Shown here: positions 5,253-20,066 of the stretch, piece by piece | Numbering within the stretch: position 1 is the first letter of the stretch | How the letters are laid out: each line of letters begins with the position of its first letter | Notes under the pieces: model-generated | The model's input: the letters and a program-made list of their open reading frames with translations, nothing else | Database searches by the model: none | Told to the model about the DNA's origin: nothing | Origin: a virus | Lineage: Duplodnaviria > Heunggongvirae > Uroviricota > Caudoviricetes | Length of the DNA: 29,278 nt | IMG/VR virus record: IMGVR_UViG_2778261180_000001 | Direction: 5' to 3' (one strand) | Program-made: the position numbers and the translations under genes

Positions 5253-5666
5253 TTAATTCGTGTACGTGATCTGGTATGTGATTTCCGCCATCGCCCAGGT
5301 GGCCATCTCATTATCACGTTGATAGTTAAAACCGAGAGGGATCAGGGTGTCGATGAGTCCGGAAAGTGCCGGTATATCATTCAGAGCCGGGAAAATGGTG
5401 CTCTCCATCCACATATCCAGCTCTGAATCCGGTGCCTGTGCCCGGATGAAGACAGCAATATGCAGAACAGCCTGCCAGTCATCTTCATCCGTCATTTTTC
5501 CGGTGTACTGAGCATCACTCAGCCACACCGCCACGGCAGGCAGTTCCTGCGCATCAATAAATGCCGGAAGCCCGTCAAAAAACGTGGCGCTGTCTCCACA
5601 CTGTTCCCGAAGGCGTGCCAGTACGGCCTGGCGGATTTGTGTATGTCGGTTCATCGGGTCAGCCAT
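5253..5666 (-). CDS. Tail terminator protein U (lambda gpU-like)
   Basis: ...ATFFDGLPAFIDAQELPAVAVWLSDAQYTG...DSELDMWMESTIFPALNDIPALSGLI... resembles lambda U. The start may instead be the internal ATG at 5654, which overlaps the Z stop as ATGA. Confidence 0.8.
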   Translation of the reverse strand: MADPMNRHTQIRQAVLARLREQCGDSATFFDGLPAFIDAQELPAVAVWLSDAQYTGKMTDEDDWQAVLHIAVFIRAQAPDSELDMWMESTIFPALNDIPALSGLIDTLIPLGFNYQRDNEMATWAMAEITYQITYTN

Positions 5667-6229
5667 AACCTCAGTTGTTGTTTCAGTGCATACCCCAGCT
5701 GTTTCGGCATTTCCGCAGCAATAATGCGGTCGCGGGCATCTTCAAATGCCTGTGTCAGCGGTCCGGACAGCGGGACTTTCACCACATCAATGGGGTAACG
5801 ATTTTTGCCATCAATACGCCGCATCACATGCCAGCGACCATTCGCCAGTTGCTGAATAAACGCATCCCGGAAAAGATATTTACCCACCTTCAGCACACTG
5901 CCACGGTACTGCAGTTTTCCACCACGCCGGGCCAGTCTGACCCGGGCTGTCCCCAGCTTAATAGCGGGCAGATTGCCCCGGTTAACGCGGATCCTGGCCG
6001 TCATTTTTCCTGACGGACTGGCTTTAAACACCCGGACACGCTGACGTACCAGTTTCAGGGGGATCCCTTTCACCTGGTTATCTCCCGCAACGGTATTCCC
6101 GGCAACCTGCCGGGTGGCGACCGAGACCGCTTTCTGTGCCACACGGTTTATCGCCCATGCGCTGGCCTGTGGCACCATACGGGTATCAAGGCTGTTCAGA
6201 TTACGGATGGCATTCTCAAGCCCCTTCAT
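5651..6229 (-). CDS. Minor tail protein Z (lambda gpZ-like)
   Basis: 192 aa; MKGLENAIRNLNSL...AINRVAQKA...NGRWHVMRRIDGKNRYPIDVVKVPL...LGYALKQQLRLWLTR matches lambda Z, including the same length. Confidence 0.8.
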   Translation of the reverse strand: MKGLENAIRNLNSLDTRMVPQASAWAINRVAQKAVSVATRQVAGNTVAGDNQVKGIPLKLVRQRVRVFKASPSGKMTARIRVNRGNLPAIKLGTARVRLARRGGKLQYRGSVLKVGKYLFRDAFIQQLANGRWHVMRRIDGKNRYPIDVVKVPLSGPLTQAFEDARDRIIAAEMPKQLGYALKQQLRLWLTR

Positions 6230-13775: not shown

Positions 13776-14468
13776 ATGTCTAGAGAAGGCTCGTTGGACT
13801 TATTGCAAGAAGTTGAAGAAAGTCTTGACATAATGAGACAGACACAGCATATCAAGCCTGTAAAAGTCAAAGCTATTTTGGAAAACTTACGAAGTTCCTT
13901 AGAGTATCTCGCTAATGATACCTATGATAAATATATTTCTCCACGCAGTAATGATGAGCGCCCCAAAATATATTTCCCTTACGGAAAAAAAGAGTTTATT
14001 GATAAATTTTTCTCAAAGACGCTAAAAATAAACCCACCATCATCTTCTCCATTATATAAAATTTTTACTTCTATACAGGATTATCACACTGGCGAATCTT
14101 GGTTGGAAATGATGTGTAATCTCACTAATGAAGTAAAGCACAGACAACCAATCCCCTTAAGAGAAGAGAGTTCTGTTAAAGACCTAAGTGTGAGCGTAGA
14201 TGGTTTTGGTTTAATCACAGCAGGAAGCTCAGCAAAAATTCTCTTTAAAAACAACCACATCAATGGCAAAAAATTAGAAGACTTTACTTTCGAAAATGGG
14301 AAATTACAAAGAAGTGGTAATGGTGTACCTTTAAACATAGTCATTACCGAAGAGAAAAAAATAAGATTCCATGGGAATGACCATGAAGTAATTCCTTTCA
14401 TTGAATCATGCCTTATTAAAATCAGAATTTTTATTATCGAAGCCTATAATGAGTTAGATAAGATTTGA
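13776..14468 (+). CDS. Hypothetical 230-aa protein in an AT-rich moron, antisense to the late operon (candidate lysogen-expressed cargo, possibly defence or exclusion)
   Basis: ATG at 13776 preceded by AAAGGAGA. The gene and its flanks (about 13560-14640) are markedly more AT-rich than the phage backbone. I recognise no family. The position between Rz and cos is the slot occupied by bor in lambda. Confidence 0.6.
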   Translation: MSREGSLDLLQEVEESLDIMRQTQHIKPVKVKAILENLRSSLEYLANDTYDKYISPRSNDERPKIYFPYGKKEFIDKFFSKTLKINPPSSSPLYKIFTSIQDYHTGESWLEMMCNLTNEVKHRQPIPLREESSVKDLSVSVDGFGLITAGSSAKILFKNNHINGKKLEDFTFENGKLQRSGNGVPLNIVITEEKKIRFHGNDHEVIPFIESCLIKIRIFIIEAYNELDKI

Positions 14469-14636: not shown

Positions 14637-15173
14637 TTACTGGCCATGCTCAGATGGTCTGTAACGCAACTCATCAATTTCACGAATACTCGAAAAATTA
14701 TTATTTCCTTTTTCTATCAACGCCAGTAGCGGCTTAATCCACAAGACAGCTTGGCAGTAGGTCATTGAGCTGGTGGTAGCGGTACGATCATAGGCTTCAT
14801 TAGGTCTGCCGGTATCGGTGTGCATGGCGCTGGCACGTAAACGGTACGTGTATTCGAGCAACCCACCAGCGATATCAGCAGGAACAGGCAGATCACAGGT
14901 TTTTTCACGGCGGAGAATCTCCCGGTATTCGATTACGGTTTTTTCGGTGCTGGTGTCGATCAGGGAGTTAAGACTGTTGGCATGTTCTGCAACCTGATTG
15001 AATCGATTGAAGTTGAATGCCTGGGTGGCGATTACCTGCCCCAGCATAGAGTTGTCACTTCGCAGAACGTCGTTATCGCTCTGAAGATTACTGGCGTGAG
15101 AGCAACTCTTGACGAGAGCGACCGAAAGGCCAGCAATAACGACAACGCCTATAAGATCCGGATTAATTTTCAT
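14637..15173 (-). CDS. Rz i-spanin
   Basis: Start inferred at the internal ATG (MKINPDLIGVVVIAGLSVALV...), which has an N-terminal transmembrane segment and overlaps the endolysin gene end. The rest is coiled-coil like. It is the last gene of the lysis cassette. Confidence 0.7.
   Translation of the reverse strand: MKINPDLIGVVVIAGLSVALVKSCSHASNLQSDNDVLRSDNSMLGQVIATQAFNFNRFNQVAEHANSLNSLIDTSTEKTVIEYREILRREKTCDLPVPADIAGGLLEYTYRLRASAMHTDTGRPNEAYDRTATTSSMTYCQAVLWIKPLLALIEKGNNNFSSIREIDELRYRPSEHGQ
14762..14908 (-). CDS. Rz1 o-spanin lipoprotein, embedded in the +1 frame of Rz
   Basis: My own translation of the +1 frame inside Rz gives (GTG)MKKPVICLFLLISLVGCSNTRTVYVPAPCTPIPADLMKPMIVPLPPAQ: a signal peptide, an LVGC lipobox and a Pro-rich body. 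GGGAGA lies 9 nt upstream of the GTG. Confidence 0.5.
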   Translation of the reverse strand: MKKPVICLFLLISLVGCSNTRTVYVPAPCTPIPADLMKPMIVPLPPAQ

Positions 15174-15712
15174 TGCTCCAGCCCCCAGCACGCCAGTGCG
15201 CTTTCCTGATCGCGCCGCTCGACCTGCCCATAACAGCCATTCTTCTGCCCTTTTGTCAGGCGGCAATCACGCCCACCATCTTTTATCCACCAGCGAATCG
15301 CCTCGCATGCCCCCTTACGATCATCGGCATTCAGCCGCTTATAAAACGTCGACGGGAAACACTTACCGGGGCCAATGTTATAGGGACAAAATGACGCTAT
15401 ACCCGCTTTCTGTGGTTCGGTCAGTGGCACTTTAATATTGCGCTCCACCCATGCCAGCGCCTTATCCCGTTCAATGGCGTTAACCTGGTCGCATTTTTCC
15501 TTCGACAGTTTCATACCGGGAAAAACGGGTTTTCCATCCACCACCGTGGCACCCCGACAGATGGTCCAGATGCCGGAACCATCGCGGTATGCCGTTGTGT
15601 GGTTACCTTCTTTTTCATTCAGAAACTGGTCGAGAATATCAGGCGCAGGCGCACCGACGGCAATCAGTGCCAGAACGGCAGCCGACAGGCCGTATCTGAT
15701 TTTTACGTTCAT
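15170..15712 (-). CDS. Endolysin, T4-lysozyme-like (GH24) with an N-terminal SAR-type hydrophobic segment
   Basis: The catalytic triad spacing E-x8-D-x5-T is present in LNEKEGNHTTAYRDGSGIWTICRG. The N-terminus GLSAAVLALIAVGAPAP is Gly/Ala-rich like a signal-anchor-release domain. Paired with an S21-type pinholin. Confidence 0.85.
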   Translation of the reverse strand: MNVKIRYGLSAAVLALIAVGAPAPDILDQFLNEKEGNHTTAYRDGSGIWTICRGATVVDGKPVFPGMKLSKEKCDQVNAIERDKALAWVERNIKVPLTEPQKAGIASFCPYNIGPGKCFPSTFYKRLNADDRKGACEAIRWWIKDGGRDCRLTKGQKNGCYGQVERRDQESALACWGLEQ

Positions 15713-15817
15713 GGATATTTATCAGGATTTATCGGTTTCTGAACCCTGGATATGTTTATCTGTCCCGGCCTGTTGAATCAGGCAAGGAATAGTTAAATAC
15801 AATAGAGAGGATTGTTT

Positions 15818-16090
15818 ATGGACAATAGCACCATTTCTCTACAGGAGTTGCTCGACTGCATTTCCAAGCTTCGGGATGATGTAAATGCCCTTACTGTCGC
15901 ATTTTCATATCTGGCATTCTCAATTCCCAAGGAACAAATGCAACCAACACTGGCATCGCTCCAGCTTGAATCACTCAACCCCAAATGGTCCCAGCAACAA
16001 CAAAATTCTTTCAAGTGGCTGGCGGTATTACTGGAAGAAAAATATGCTGGTGAAATTACCATTTCGGCGGAGTCTTCAGAGAACCAGTAA
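15818..16090 (+). CDS. Hypothetical 90-aa protein encoded antisense within the lysis cassette
   Basis: ATG at 15818 preceded by AGAGAGGA. It fills the 340-bp gap between the ydfR-like gene and the endolysin gene. No family recognised; coding status unproven. Confidence 0.3.
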   Translation: MDNSTISLQELLDCISKLRDDVNALTVAFSYLAFSIPKEQMQPTLASLQLESLNPKWSQQQQNSFKWLAVLLEEKYAGEITISAESSENQ

Positions 16091-16400
16091 TTCTTCCCGG
16101 TAGCTTTCCTTTGTAGGTTATCCACACATTCTGCGCCTCTAAAATTATGGGGCGCTTTTCCGGCGACAGCTCATCCCCTTCACATAACCCGGCAGCAACA
16201 TCCAGGAAGACCTGTCTGATGCTCCTTCTGGCTGCTGCCTCATAAAACTCCAGCGCGGCACCTTCAACACGGTCCAGCGAGATGTCCAGGTCAAAAATTT
16301 CACCGTCAAAGCGTTCTTTGTCCCGTAACGCTAAAGTTACCGTAACTTTATTCTCAAAATTGCGGATCCCTTTCACAATCAGTTCATATTTTTGAGTCAT
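16056..16400 (-). CDS. YdfR-like protein, sitting between holin and endolysin as in Qin-type lysis cassettes
   Basis: 114-aa ORF with ATG at 16400, a GGAGAG Shine-Dalgarno, starting 5 nt after the holin stop. The YdfR assignment is by position (Qin has essQ-ydfR-rrrQ), not by a sequence match I can verify. Confidence 0.5.
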   Translation of the reverse strand: MTQKYELIVKGIRNFENKVTVTLALRDKERFDGEIFDLDISLDRVEGAALEFYEAAARRSIRQVFLDVAAGLCEGDELSPEKRPIILEAQNVWITYKGKLPGRITGSLKTPPKW

Positions 16401-16404
16401 TGAA

Positions 16405-16620
16405 TTACTCTCCCCGTGCAGCCTTACGCTTGTCTTCTTTAATCTTGAAATAAAGGTTTGTCAGGTACGTCAGCAGGCCAAATACCAGGCTACCCAGCAC
16501 ACCTATTGCTGCCCACTGTGAGGGCGTGACTTTATCGAGCAGCTGTAAAAACCAGTAGCCAGCACTGCCTGCGGAGGTGCCGTAGGCAATGCCTGTTGAA
16601 ATTTTGTCCATGGATTTCAT
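16405..16620 (-). CDS. Pinholin, phage 21 S21-like, with a dual-start motif (antiholin from Met1, holin from Met4)
   Basis: [71 protein letters not shown] is near-identical to phage 21 S21 as I remember it. The MKSM dual start corresponds to the S21-71 / S21-68 pair. Confidence 0.85.
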
Positions 16621-16723
16621 AGCCTCACCTCCGCACGGAACGGATGGCATAGTTATTATGTGTAGGCTTCCAGACACATCAATCAGAGCCTTAATTGATA
16701 TATATGCTGGAGACGATGCAATA

Positions 16724-16748
16724 TAAAAAGCTCGCCGTAGCGAGCTAA
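16724..16748 (-). terminator. Hairpin with flanking A/T runs between the lipoprotein genes and the holin gene
   Basis: Seen directly: AAAAAGCTCGCcgtaGCGAGCTAATAAAA, a 7-bp stem with T-runs on the minus strand. It would need Q-mediated readthrough for holin expression. Confidence 0.35.
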
Positions 16749-16871
16749 TAAAATGTATTTCTCTGATATTATGTTTATTTGTATTAGCTCAGACTTGACA
16801 TCACAGGTTTCGTATATAGAACATCATCAAATCTGTCAGTTTGCTATGAATGAGATATAGTAATTGAAGAG

Positions 16872-17267
16872 CTAACCTCGCATGTCAAAGCCAGATTTCT
16901 GAAAATCTCTGTAGACTTCCGGATTGTTGAAGGCCGGAAATTTGGCTTTATGAGCTGCGGACTTTATCGCTTCGCAATAGGCTTTATCACCGTTACTGGT
17001 AGATATTTTTAACGCCGTGCCATCCTGAGAGAATTCCATATGCAACCTGCATTTTTTCCCTTTCCAGTTATGCGGCTCATCAAGTTTGGCATTAATTGCA
17101 GCTCTGATTCCCCGCGCTTGCGCCCCCCATTCATCCTGATCATCCCAGCGTCCTGAACTGCAACTACCTGTAGCAGTAGTTTTGTGGCAATCTGAAGGGT
17201 GTAAAGGTGTGCATCCCGCAACAAAACTGACCCAAAAAGTCAACATAACGATTTTCTTTAATCCCAC
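16872..17267 (-). CDS. Lipoprotein with a TolA C-terminal (TolA-III)-like domain
   Basis: GTG start with a GAGGAG Shine-Dalgarno; signal peptide and lipobox (MGLKKIVMLTFWVSFVAGC). The C-terminal part (KKCRLHMEFSQDGTALKISTSNGDKAYCEAIKSAAHKAKFPAFNNPEVYRDFQKSGFDM) resembles the E. coli TolA C-terminus as I recall it, and is paralogous to the next gene. Confidence 0.7.
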   Translation of the reverse strand: MGLKKIVMLTFWVSFVAGCTPLHPSDCHKTTATGSCSSGRWDDQDEWGAQARGIRAAINAKLDEPHNWKGKKCRLHMEFSQDGTALKISTSNGDKAYCEAIKSAAHKAKFPAFNNPEVYRDFQKSGFDMRG

Positions 17268-17417
17268 TTCTTGCTCCTCAATCCATTAAAATCTCAGCAA
17301 TAGTAGTTGTTACGTCCGCCACTGGCTCAGAGCTGACTATCCGCTAGATTTAGCTCAGTGCCGTAGTTGTGTCAGAACAAACCTAAGCCGAAACCGTTTA
17401 TTACAAAACAATAAATA

Positions 17418-17846
17418 TCAGGGTTTAAAATCCAGCACCCCATTTTGAAATACTTTATATACTTCCGGCGAAGGGGGGGCAGGTATATCAGCATTCTTTA
17501 TCGCATTCATCGCTTCACGACATAAATCGAGGTCTCCACTTTCTCTTTTAACCTCCAGTAGAAGGCCATTCGGGGCCATATGCATTCTCAGTGTACACTC
17601 TTTTCCTGAATACTTACTCGCATCCCCGAACTGTTTTTCGATGGCGCTCTTGATTTGATGGGCATACAGACGGATATCCTCACTAACATCAGAAGTACGT
17701 TCAGATGAACTCACATACTGTGTCTCTATTGCTTTATCGGAGTAATATGATGTACGGTCATGATAATTTGTCGATACAGCATCAGTGCACCCGATAATAA
17801 TCCCACTAATAATCAACGTAAGAATTGATGCGCTACGAAAACCCAT
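17418..17846 (-). CDS. Lipoprotein with a TolA C-terminal (TolA-III)-like domain, paralog of the previous gene
   Basis: ATG with a GAGGA Shine-Dalgarno; lipobox IIGC. C-terminus YAHQIKSAIEKQFGDASKYSGKECTLRMHMAPNGLLLEVKRESGDLDLCREAMNAIKNADIPAPPSPEVYKVFQNGVLDFKP closely resembles the TolA-III segment ...AGQIKSAIESKFYDASSYAGKTCTLRIKLAPDGMLLDIKPEGGDPALCQAALAAAKLAKIPKPPSQAVYEVFKNAPLDFKP (recalled). Confidence 0.7.
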   Translation of the reverse strand: MGFRSASILTLIISGIIIGCTDAVSTNYHDRTSYYSDKAIETQYVSSSERTSDVSEDIRLYAHQIKSAIEKQFGDASKYSGKECTLRMHMAPNGLLLEVKRESGDLDLCREAMNAIKNADIPAPPSPEVYKVFQNGVLDFKP

Positions 17847-18379
17847 TTTTCCTCACATATGTCATATAGTAAAGGATTATATATACCGTTGTTTTGGACG
17901 CTCAAACAGCGAATCAGATCAAATAAAACGCACATTTGTTAACATTTACACAAAGTCTGCGTGGGATATTCTGAAAGAATATCCATAATGTGGAGAGAAT
18001 CTATTGAAGTGCATGGTGCCGGGTGCCTCCCGGTGAATTCAGTACCAGCACCTGAATCCGCGATTATCCCATATACCTACTCGCTGATTGCCCCTCCGCA
18101 CAGGGGGATTCACCATGCCAGTTTCTTTTAACAAACTCCCCGCAAACCAGAGAACAGTCAACCGCCTGAATTGTGAAGTATTTAAAAATTTCTCCCGCTA
18201 ACTGATACCCGGCTAACAGTCTGGCGTTTTCTTTTTCAGCAACGGGAAAGCAACAACCACCACACCCGCCACCAGCACACCGTCAGCCAGCACTGACATT
18301 ATCCGGCTGCTGCAATGCCATTCACAAAAACAGTAAGCAATCACTTTTTACCGTAACAGGTGATAATCCAGATATGTAT

Positions 18380-18706
18380 CTACCCCAGATGAGTAATCCG
18401 AAGTTCATCCATACCACAGGTCCTGGCTATTCTGTTGTACTCCTGAACAAGAGCAAATAATTCTGAATTAGCAACCATGAACTCATCGCAAACCCTCTGT
18501 ATAGCATCACTATTCAGAATAATAACGTCTCTTCCCGAAAGACGATCAGGAGCACAGAACAAAACTGTCAAACGGCTGAAGGCCTTTGCTCGTGCTGCAT
18601 TGACTATATCAATACGCTGCCTAAGGATGAAACACCCCGACGCCTCATCAATATTCACTCTACCCACACCATATGAATGATAAATATTTAATGCTGAAAA
18701 AACCAT
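18380..18706 (-). CDS. Hypothetical protein (weak call)
   Basis: ORF between the tRNAs and the lipoprotein genes. The internal ATG has no recognisable Shine-Dalgarno and no family is recognised. May be a gene remnant. Confidence 0.2.
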   Translation of the reverse strand: MVFSALNIYHSYGVGRVNIDEASGCFILRQRIDIVNAARAKAFSRLTVLFCAPDRLSGRDVIILNSDAIQRVCDEFMVANSELFALVQEYNRIARTCGMDELRITHLG

Positions 18707-18843
18707 TAGACCGTATAACAAACACTCAATCAATACTTAACAGAACTTTTATTTTTGACAAACATATAATATTTTCAACAATATCCTGAGCCAGGTATAT
18801 TCCAGTATAAGGCTCTGCCGGAAGGAATCTGGAAGAATGAATA

Positions 18844-18920
18844 TGGCGCGCTGTACTGGATTCGAACCAGTGACCGATTGCTTAGAAGGCAATTGCTCTG
18901 TCCGGCTGAGCTAACAACGC
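18844..18920 (-). tRNA. tRNA-Arg (anticodon UCU)
   Basis: Manual fold of the reverse complement GCGTTGTTAGCTCAGCCGGACAGAGCAATTGCCTTCTAAGCAATCGGTCACTGGTTCGAATCCAGTACAGCGCGCCA gives a 7-bp acceptor stem, D-stem GCTC/GAGC, anticodon loop CTTCTAA, T-loop TTCGAAT and a CCA end. Confidence 0.8.
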
Positions 18921-19025
18921 TGAATACCGATAATGGACCGCCATCGGGGACCCGCCCCCCCCCCGCACCAACAACCCTGTTATCGTGTCGTCTGCTCTTC
19001 CTGATAAGCTCATGGCGGTTTGTGA

Positions 19026-19101
19026 TGGTGGCCCTTGCTGGATTTGAACCAGCGACCTGGCGATTATGAGTCGCTCGCTCTCACCACTGAGCTAAAGGAC
19101 C
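19026..19101 (-). tRNA. tRNA with CAU anticodon, most likely tRNA-Ile2 (lysidine) of the ileX/ileZ type; tRNA-Met not excluded
   Basis: Reverse complement GGTCCTTTAGCTCAGTGGTGAGAGCGAGCGACTCATAATCGCCAGGTCGCTGGTTCAAATCCAGCAAGGGCCACCA folds as a cloverleaf with anticodon loop CTCATAA. It is very similar to E. coli ileX as I recall it. Confidence 0.8.
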
Positions 19102-19244: not shown

Positions 19245-20066
19245 TTACCTAGTTACCTTTTTTAACTGCCGCTCAGCCCATGCTTCTTCAATATCAAACC
19301 GGGTCACCAGCGCATCATAGAATTTCTTAACTGTTTTTTCCCATGACGCGCGTGTTATCTGGTTTGTCACCTCGCATATAGCATTAAATGCCTCCGTTGA
19401 TGGTAGTCTTTCATAGCCACGACCACCACAACGCTGGCAGTCTCTGATAACAGGCATACCACGTTTTACCGACTCTTCACGGTGAATGGCGACACCACGC
19501 CCACGGCAATCCTTACAGACGGTGGAAACCTCACCCTTTCCGCCACACTCCGGACAGGCAACTTTTACCACCTCCCTGACTTTTTTCCATTCTTCCCAGT
19601 AAGACGGATACACACCTTTCGTACACTTTGCCCATACCGGCGGCTTACCATCCGGATACTGGACCTTGTTTGTAAAAACTACGCTTTCAATAAATTTTTC
19701 CCCATAGCAACAAGGGCACTGCTTTTTACTCGCTGCGCTGCGGGCATAATCCTCAAAAGCGTACGAAGCCATAATGCGCATCACTAACGGTTTTATTTCT
19801 ACCGGAAGTTTTCTCAACGCCGCCACACGATCGCACCGACTGAGTGCATAATCTGCCAGTAATTCTGTTGCCCGCGCCCTGTCATTCATACTGATGCCCA
19901 TTTTCCCCAGGAACGCAGAAAACCCCATCTCAGCCCGATTCTGTGTCATGCCCTGCGCGGCCATCACATCAGTGATACTCAGCGCATCTTTTGACGTTGA
20001 GGCCGATGCATCGGTCAGGCAAGGGGATTTTGGGGAGTAGTATTTCGGTAAATCTTCCAGTTTCAT
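19245..20066 (-). CDS. Putative late-gene antitermination protein Q (long, zinc-finger-rich type)
   Basis: 273 aa with several CxxC pairs (CPCCYG, CPECGG, CKDCRG, CQRCGG). Assigned mainly by position: between rusA and the promoter/terminator/tRNA block upstream of the lysis genes. The start overlaps the rusA stop as ATGA. Confidence 0.55.
   Translation of the reverse strand: MKLEDLPKYYSPKSPCLTDASASTSKDALSITDVMAAQGMTQNRAEMGFSAFLGKMGISMNDRARATELLADYALSRCDRVAALRKLPVEIKPLVMRIMASYAFEDYARSAASKKQCPCCYGEKFIESVVFTNKVQYPDGKPPVWAKCTKGVYPSYWEEWKKVREVVKVACPECGGKGEVSTVCKDCRGRGVAIHREESVKRGMPVIRDCQRCGGRGYERLPSTEAFNAICEVTNQITRASWEKTVKKFYDALVTRFDIEEAWAERQLKKVTR

Follow-up and report, generated by a model that had tools for sequence, protein, structure and literature searches.

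What are two short lipoproteins, each ending in the C-terminal domain of the bacterial envelope protein TolA (TolA-III), doing just ahead of the lysis genes of a phage? The question is raised by IMG/VR record IMGVR_UViG_2778261180_000001 (Caudoviricetes), a stretch of 29,278 nucleotides (nt) that we refer to as the window. TolA-III is the shared periplasmic entry point of the group A colicins and of the Ff, If1 and CTXphi-type filamentous phages, and it is the point of force in the Tol-Pal system. The segment that carries the two open reading frames (ORFs), termed A and B here, is 99.8% identical to Escherichia phage mEp460_ev081, and the window is a lambdoid E. coli prophage. The reading that we prefer, with a probability of roughly 45%, is that A and B are powerless decoys for colicins, filamentous phages or TolB. 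The two ORFs and their parts are as follows.

17418..17846, minus strand: ORF A, 142 amino acids, with a lipoprotein signal peptide, a disordered linker and a TolA-III domain; a GAGGA Shine-Dalgarno site lies 5 nt before the ATG
17787..17846, minus strand: signal peptide and lipobox of A, residues 1-20, Cys20 predicted to be lipidated
17421..17684, minus strand: TolA-III domain of A, residues 55-142, with 52 of 88 positions identical to E. coli TolA 334-421
17268..17417, minus strand: A-B spacer, with a conserved GAGGAG Shine-Dalgarno site in its last 30 nt
16872..17267, minus strand: ORF B, 131 amino acids, GTG start, with a lipoprotein signal, a Cys-X8-Cys linker and a divergent TolA-III domain
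17211..17267, minus strand: signal peptide and lipobox of B, residues 1-19, Cys19 predicted to be lipidated
17136-17210, minus strand: linker of B, residues 20-44, with an invariant Cys27-X8-Cys36 and the motif RWDDQDEW
16875..17135, minus strand: TolA-III domain of B, residues 45-131, with 27 of 88 positions identical to E. coli TolA-III and both disulfide cysteines kept

The likeness of the two C-terminal regions to TolA-III is not a chance resemblance. The Pfam profile PF06519 (TolA C-terminal; curated cut-off 25 bits) matches A with 82.6 bits (E = 2.4e-23) and B with 54.6 bits (E = 1.3e-14). A sequence search of the PDB aligned A with residues 334-421 of E. coli TolA, ungapped to the final residue (E = 5e-28), and B with TolA over 79-80 residues (E = 5e-9). 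In AlphaFold2 models of both proteins the predicted local distance difference test score (pLDDT) exceeds 90 across the domain, and the first 40-50 residues are disordered. The best Foldseek matches for both models are crystal structures of E. coli TolA-III, 2x9a_B for A (TMt = 0.96, r.m.s.d. = 0.6 Å) and 3qdp for B (TMt = 0.92, r.m.s.d. = 1.1 Å). A and B have in common with the known structures of this domain (1TOL, 2X9A, 3QDP/3QDR, 1S62) the fold, the disulfide pair (C363-C388, both cysteines kept in each protein) and the C-terminal β3 edge strand; the chain ends in LDFKP in A, as in TolA, and in FDMRG in B. Over the 88 aligned domain positions, identity with TolA-III is 59% for A and 31% for B, and 28% (28-29%) between A and B. 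The original prediction, made from the letters of the window alone, had seen in both ORFs a TolA-III-like C-terminal domain behind a signal peptide with a lipobox, and had proposed an alignment of both domains to TolA-III as a check. That alignment, together with the profile and fold comparisons, bears out the domain assignment, and the signal peptides can likewise be found in the sequence.

Neither protein is a TolA. Both lie outside the tolQRA-tolB-pal operon, they are 142 and 131 residues long compared with about 400 for the full protein, and they lack the inner-membrane helix (domain I) and the long helical domain II; therefore they have no coupling to the TolQR motor. Matches to the TolA equivalog profiles reach only model positions 293-386 of 387. 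On NF007065 (cut-off 213) A scores 107.8 and B 53.7, both short of the equivalog, and on TIGR02794 (cut-off 59.45) A passes with 75.6 on its C-terminal quarter alone. The NCBI Prokaryotic Genome Annotation Pipeline (PGAP) names the proteins ‘TolA C-terminal domain-containing protein’, and A also gene tolA, ‘cell envelope integrity protein TolA’ (e.g. NZ_CP010344.1), probably because the TIGR02794 cut-off is passed by this C-terminal quarter. The label tolA on a 142-residue lipoprotein is a systematic mis-annotation in hundreds of genomes, and exposes an annotation problem in RefSeq.

What the two proteins have in addition, relative to TolA, is a lipoprotein signal followed by a linker of 20-35 residues. 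As read from the sequence, A starts with MGFRSASILTLIISGIIIG ahead of the Cys predicted to be lipidated (lipobox IIGC) and B with MGLKKIVMLTFWVSFVAG ahead of its own (lipobox VAGC); both signal peptides combine a positively charged n-region, a hydrophobic core and a lipobox. In E. coli the residue that follows the lipidated Cys sets the membrane destination in Lol sorting (the +2 rule). Both proteins have Thr at +2, so they are probably anchored in the inner leaflet of the outer membrane. The start of B deserves a comment, since PGAP uses an internal ATG that gives a shorter form of 124 residues. The GTG start and the GAGGAG ribosome-binding site are kept across genera, which disfavours the shorter form.

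The ligand-binding surfaces indicate what such domains might hold. The g3p-N1 domain of filamentous phage, colicin N and the N-terminus of TolB all use the TolA helix 334-349 and add a strand to β3 (417-420) by backbone hydrogen bonds, and either D418P or K420P alone abolishes all three interactions and gives a full tol phenotype (PMC4339652). Colicin A adds its strand at TolA 375-380, on the opposite side, and uses K368, K379 and K396 (PMC3365938). Of the 21 positions that make up the g3p/colicin N/TolB face, 15 are identical to TolA in A and 5 in B; for the 9 positions of the colicin A site the counts are 4 and 2, and for the remaining 58 domain positions 33 and 20. There is no proline in the β3 strand of either protein, and A retains LDFK exactly. 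Because this face is kept, A should bind the β3-face ligands of E. coli TolA-III with TolA-like specificity. In B, by comparison with E. coli TolA-III, the ligand faces are remodelled; it keeps a generic edge strand only, and its specificity or partner is probably different. We discarded a TolB-box-like reading of the segment SSGRWDDQDEWG in B: in the alignment its second Trp falls opposite Tyr340, where TolA helix 1 begins, and in the model the segment is part of this helix.

For colicins and filamentous phages to be imported, and for Pal to be mobilised, TolA-III must be coupled to the TolQR motor (PMC7391070). We propose that A and B would be held by their lipid anchor at the inner leaflet of the outer membrane, displaying a tethered TolA-III that TolQR could not energise. 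By strand addition at the β3 edge they would capture what normally engages TolA, namely the epitopes through which group A colicins bind it, g3p-N1 of filamentous phages and the TolB N-terminus. Ligands caught on this dead-end tether, which would lie at the very site where g3p and the translocation domains of colicins first emerge, would not be drawn inward. The lysogen would become tolerant to Tol-dependent colicins and/or pilus-specific filamentous phages because a motor-less copy would not pull in what it has captured. For B, with its remodelled surface and its conserved disulfide-loop linker, a partner other than that of A is probable.

Several known systems resemble this arrangement in part. 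The phage lipoproteins Llp and Cor sit at the inner leaflet of the outer membrane, where they bind and plug the receptor FhuA. These FhuA blockers, T5 Llp and the phi80/N15-type Cor, are likewise small outer-membrane lipoproteins of phages that halt later invaders; A and B, however, have no sequence or fold relation to them, and would imitate a periplasmic co-receptor rather than plug a receptor. Recombinant periplasmic TolA-III is also a free domain without a motor link and has been reported to give leaky cells, but it is an over-expressed, soluble laboratory construct, whereas A and B are natural, predicted to be lipid-anchored, and found on phages, plasmids and chromosomes. Colicin tolerance caused by periplasmic TolA-III is said to have been described by Levengood-Freyermuth in 1993; leakiness and tolerance are what the decoy reading would predict, and the construct serves as its laboratory precedent. 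A fusion of TolA-III to a signal sequence has been used to release periplasmic protein from E. coli, in a paper that cites Levengood-Freyermuth 1993 and Wan & Baneyx 1998 for periplasmic TolA-III making cells leaky (PMC6195910). The mirror image is provided by the N-terminal domains of g3p, which in the periplasm block the contact between TolA-III and g3p and confer Ff resistance (Boeke et al. 1982, as cited in PMC3102678). There the ligand saturates the receptor, whereas with A and B a copy of the receptor would soak up the ligand.

Both ORFs are working genes. B is under strong purifying selection, with a ratio of nonsynonymous to synonymous substitution rates (dN/dS) of 0.08-0.10 against the copies from plasmids, Enterobacter and Serratia (dS 0.5-1.1). 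A is less constrained, at 0.36 for the whole ORF, 0.24 for the domain and 0.59 for the linker. The linker of B has a dN/dS of 0.015-0.10, equal to or below that of the domain, and its Cys-X8-Cys and RWDDQDEW are conserved down to relatives of about 40% identity. Constrained as strongly as the domain or more so, it appears to be more than a tether, which points to a second functional element. We give next to no credence to the idea that A and B are decaying, functionless fragments of a captured tolA. It could draw on the plain tolA label that PGAP gives to A and on the truncated and frameshifted variants in the protein collection (e.g. P0130, P0140), but the ORFs are intact and preceded by Shine-Dalgarno sites, dN/dS values of 0.08-0.36 at dS of 0.5-1.0 contradict decay, the two cysteines of the disulfide are kept, a lipoprotein signal has been gained, and the domain of A is at least 99% identical across 782 E. 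coli genomes.

The two genes have different distributions. The A family is confined to lambdoid prophages of E. coli and Shigella (46 clusters). By blastn, 897 of 5426 complete E. coli genomes (16.5%) carry the domain of A, the 782 just mentioned among them, and the A-B segment as a whole has a match in 25% of complete E. coli genomes. The same blastn search with the A domain found no DNA-level match in the host tolA in any of the 5426 genomes, which rules out A as a recent capture of E. coli's own gene. A variant of A with 66% identity occupies the Q-to-holin slot of other lambdoid prophages unaccompanied by B, near nanS-p-type genes. At four of these loci (L011-L014) a TfpB-family gene and an AraC-type regulator lie about 1.2-2.4 kb upstream, between Q and the A-type gene, and one of the four has a nanS-p-like esterase downstream of the variant.

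The B family (370 clusters, 80-90% identity) extends over Citrobacter, Enterobacter, Serratia, Klebsiella and Raoultella. A genome scan with a narrow alignment that reaches the B clade only placed it in representatives of 35 species, from Shigella and at least 13 other enterobacterial genera. As a solitary, non-phage chromosomal gene it lies between the glutathione peroxidase and RidA genes in Enterobacter and between nrdDG and a GmrSD/HEPN pair in Serratia; the flanks vary by genus and at times include integrases. On about 600 plasmids B is found with 88% DNA identity over exactly the ORF and 30 nt (16869..17297 of the window, the end of the spacer at 17268..17297 thus being part of the cassette), and in Enterobacter and Serratia the conservation of the locus extends about 45 nt ahead of the GTG. 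In the I-complex plasmids (IncI1/B/O, IncK/Z) B follows the relaxase gene nikB by 67 nt on the same strand, and in pO157 it lies between toxB and the hok/psiAB region. Such a spread, over plasmids and solitary chromosomal sites, is typical of a host-protective cargo gene. The I pilus made by the I-complex plasmids is the receptor of phage If1 (PMC3102678), and the complex of If1 g3p with TolA-III has been solved (2x9a). The occurrence of B on I-pilus plasmids and its scatter as single-gene cargo fit the decoy reading. Two contigs of about 8 kb (L175, L176), assigned to metagenome bins of Lachnospiraceae and Treponemataceae, hold a B gene with 89% identity to that of the window; they are most likely mis-binned fragments of enterobacterial plasmids.

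In IMG/VR the two genes travel together. They occur jointly in 155 of 159 loci, with a 154-nt gap in 152, and 63 of 64 loci have the same holin downstream; of the 70 loci whose sequence reaches far enough upstream, only 32 have the Q type of the window there. At one locus (L170:1392-1562) a truncated A, reduced to its last 57 residues, precedes an intact B. At two other loci A and B stand 1353 nt apart, consistent with an insertion, and one RefSeq genome has the insertion sequence IS1 inside the A-B segment. The original prediction had described tandem paralogues that arose by duplication into two diverged copies. The shared domain stands, but the two are not each other's closest relatives, and the duplication has to be given up. 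A tandem duplication within a phage followed by divergence into two specificities would account for the adjacency, the common strand and architecture and the regular co-occurrence; we hold it to be very improbable, as A and B are less similar to each other (28%) than A is to TolA (59%) and about as similar as B is to TolA, B shares 88% of its DNA sequence with plasmid genes, its kin at 80-90% occur in many genera outside phages, and A-type genes are found without B in other prophages. The pair is a fixed combination of two independently acquired cargo genes tied to the lysis module, since A is nearer to TolA than to B, the DNA and clade relatives of B lie outside phages, and A types occur alone.

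The slot that the pair occupies, and the signals around it, bear on when the genes would be expressed. On the minus strand the order is Q, two tRNAs, an ORF of PHROG 2873, a DUF3927 mini-ORF, A, B, a terminator and the lysis genes.

19245..20066, minus strand: Q antiterminator (PF03589, E = 2e-54), the upstream boundary of the moron slot
18844..19101, minus strand: two phage tRNA genes, with anticodons CAT and TCT (tRNA-Arg)
17876..17905, minus strand: sigma-70 promoter-like site (TTGAGC, 18-nt spacer, TATAAT), about 30 nt upstream of the start of A
16719..16746, minus strand: intrinsic terminator, with a 7-bp stem (AGCUCGC, GCGAGCU), the loop UACG and a U-run (hairpin 16746..16729)
14637..16677, minus strand: complete lysis cassette, downstream of ORF B
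16405..16677, minus strand: S21-type holin
16056..16400, minus strand: DUF1327/YdfR ORF, 114 amino acids
15170..15712, minus strand: signal-arrest-release (SAR)-type endolysin
14637..15173, minus strand: Rz-like spanin

These gene calls agree, to the coordinate, with the placement of the pair in the late region between Q with the tRNAs and the lysis genes that the original prediction had given, and the terminator that it had assigned to the pair is the intrinsic hairpin, 125 nt past the stop of B and before the holin. The promoter-like site matches 10 of 12 consensus positions and is the best in the 5.3 kb scanned, where the count of such sites is no higher than in shuffles. The arrangement looks like that of a moron inside the Q-dependent late transcript. 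The known lambdoid morons of the late region (stx, nanS-p, bor, lom) are likewise cargo in or near the Q-to-lysis slot with their own transcription signals, but they belong to other protein families, and for A and B these signals are predicted only.

The main rival to the decoy reading, unlikely in our view though to be taken seriously, is that A and B modulate Tol-Pal. A tethered TolA-III would bind the N-terminus of TolB in the TolB-Pal complex, compete with TolA and damp the mobilisation of Pal; the outcome may be a loosened outer membrane and more vesicles in the lysogen, or an easier rupture at lysis if the proteins are made in bulk late. The place of the genes in the late transcript directly upstream of a nearly constant holin would suit such a role, as would the TolB-binding β3 strand that A retains exactly. 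Blocking the TolA-TolB contact produces the full tol phenotype (PMC4339652), periplasmic TolA-III is reported to make cells leaky (PMC6195910), and a review of Tol-Pal points to a possible control of vesicle production through changes in TolB interactions (PMC7391070). Against this, the phage is already equipped with holin, endolysin and Rz-like spanin, a complete set that weakens the idea of a lysis helper in particular; B is strongly conserved on plasmids and at non-phage chromosomal sites, where a role in lysis is meaningless and a chronic tol phenotype costly; and a unit that does not depend on the timing of lysis is suggested by the terminator and the promoter-like site. A further alternative, rather unlikely overall and more pertinent to B, is that the fold has been co-opted for another partner, such as peptidoglycan, a protein of the outer membrane, or a bacteriocin or phage protein for which no link to TolA has been made so far. 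At 31% identity B has had both known ligand faces largely replaced, a passive tether would not be as conserved as its linker is, and a Klebsiella plasmid on which a B-like gene follows that of a secreted protein consisting of a TonB C-terminal domain only (see below) hints at a wider use of such domains. However, the C-terminal β3 edge strand, which all known β3-face ligands use, is the most persistent feature of the family, and with A so TolA-like on exactly this face, a new partner is not the simplest reading.

Some points also weigh against the decoy reading itself. B is without most of the side chains of both known ligand faces and may therefore have a partner that is not among the known ligands of TolA. 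The affinity of TolA for TolB is weak, about 40 µM (PMC4339652), and a decoy with TolB among its ligands should be costly and interfere with Tol-Pal too. In the late transcript, a place immediately ahead of the lysis genes suits a role in the lytic cycle equally well. The promoter-like site is a consensus match only and is not conserved in divergent A-type loci, which weakens the case for expression of A and B in the lysogen. Curated resources and publications lend the reading no backing either: phrog_5772, which holds A and B together, lists the function as ‘unknown’, PADLOC returned no match for A or B, and a full-text literature search retrieved no study of these lipoproteins, functional or other. 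A 2025 paper on the evolution of TolA and TonB leaves stand-alone lipoprotein forms unmentioned. The TolA-III domain itself is thus known and the genes carry annotated names, but the literature searched appears to contain no description of the architecture, its breadth or its function.

That breadth became visible in an exhaustive HMMER search with B as the query (E up to 1e-3), which returned 132 cluster representatives, mostly of 120-150 residues and thus unlike the length of real TolA. Among 46 family sequences taken for inspection, 4 were fragments of real TolA; of the 42 other short proteins, 38 have a lipobox, 3 an ordinary signal peptide and one (P0188), as read from its sequence, neither, and none of the 42 has Asp at +2. 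The β3 motif [LIVMF][DN][FIM][KRQ]x stands at the extreme C-terminus in 27 of the 46. Several short members are 61-66% identical to E. coli TolA-III, so the fusion of a lipoprotein signal to the TolA tip either arose repeatedly or is old and has been kept TolA-like. A profile search with the A and B alignment gave only B-family proteins among the matches listed. Three other family members (P0305, P0248, P0292) were absent from the viral contigs scanned, and the link to phages is so far specific to A and B. In Klebsiella sp. WOUb02, plasmid unnamed4 encodes at 5574-5951 (plus strand) a 125-residue protein with a signal peptide and a TonB C-terminal domain only (PF03544, E = 2.7e-12), directly upstream of the gene of a B-like TolA-III lipoprotein (53% identical); the two would be motor-less Ton and Tol tip domains on one plasmid.

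As a broader and more tentative proposal, which may well prove too wide, the decoy reading could extend to an unrecognised class of envelope defence, in which lipid-anchored, motor-less tips of TolA (perhaps also of TonB) would capture, below the outer membrane, the import epitopes of colicins and filamentous phages ahead of their contact with energised TolA, with clades tuned to different invaders and spread as single-gene cargo. The sites of such cargo are lambdoid prophages, IncI-complex plasmids, pO157 and chromosomal islands. If A and B are decoys, they would represent a simple new kind of mobile resistance or exclusion determinant, carried on prophages, pO157 and the I-complex resistance plasmids, could explain part of the unexplained tolerance of natural isolates to colicins and phages, and could affect host ranges in phage display and phage therapy. 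If TolB is the target, they would be the first regulator of Tol-Pal and vesicle production encoded by a mobile element.

The neighbourhood of the pair holds other genes of note. The tRNA at 19026-19101 (minus strand) is called tRNA-Met (CAT) by ARAGORN and tRNA-Ile by PGAP; the latter would fit a lysidine-modified CAT anticodon of the ileZ type of Stx phages. Between the tRNAs and ORF A (18213-18733, minus strand) lie a 117-residue ORF (phrog_2873, of unknown function and without a Pfam domain) and the 43-residue DUF3927 ORF, further uncharacterised cargo in the same slot as ORF A. A 230-residue ORF at 13776-14468 (plus strand), without a Pfam match and hypothetical in RefSeq, runs antisense to the late genes between the spanin and DUF1441/terminase and is a candidate cargo gene. 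The position of the DUF1327/YdfR ORF between holin and endolysin is unusual for a lysis cassette, and in strain ECC-1470 an IS3-family element is inserted between this ORF and the endolysin gene (rrrQ).

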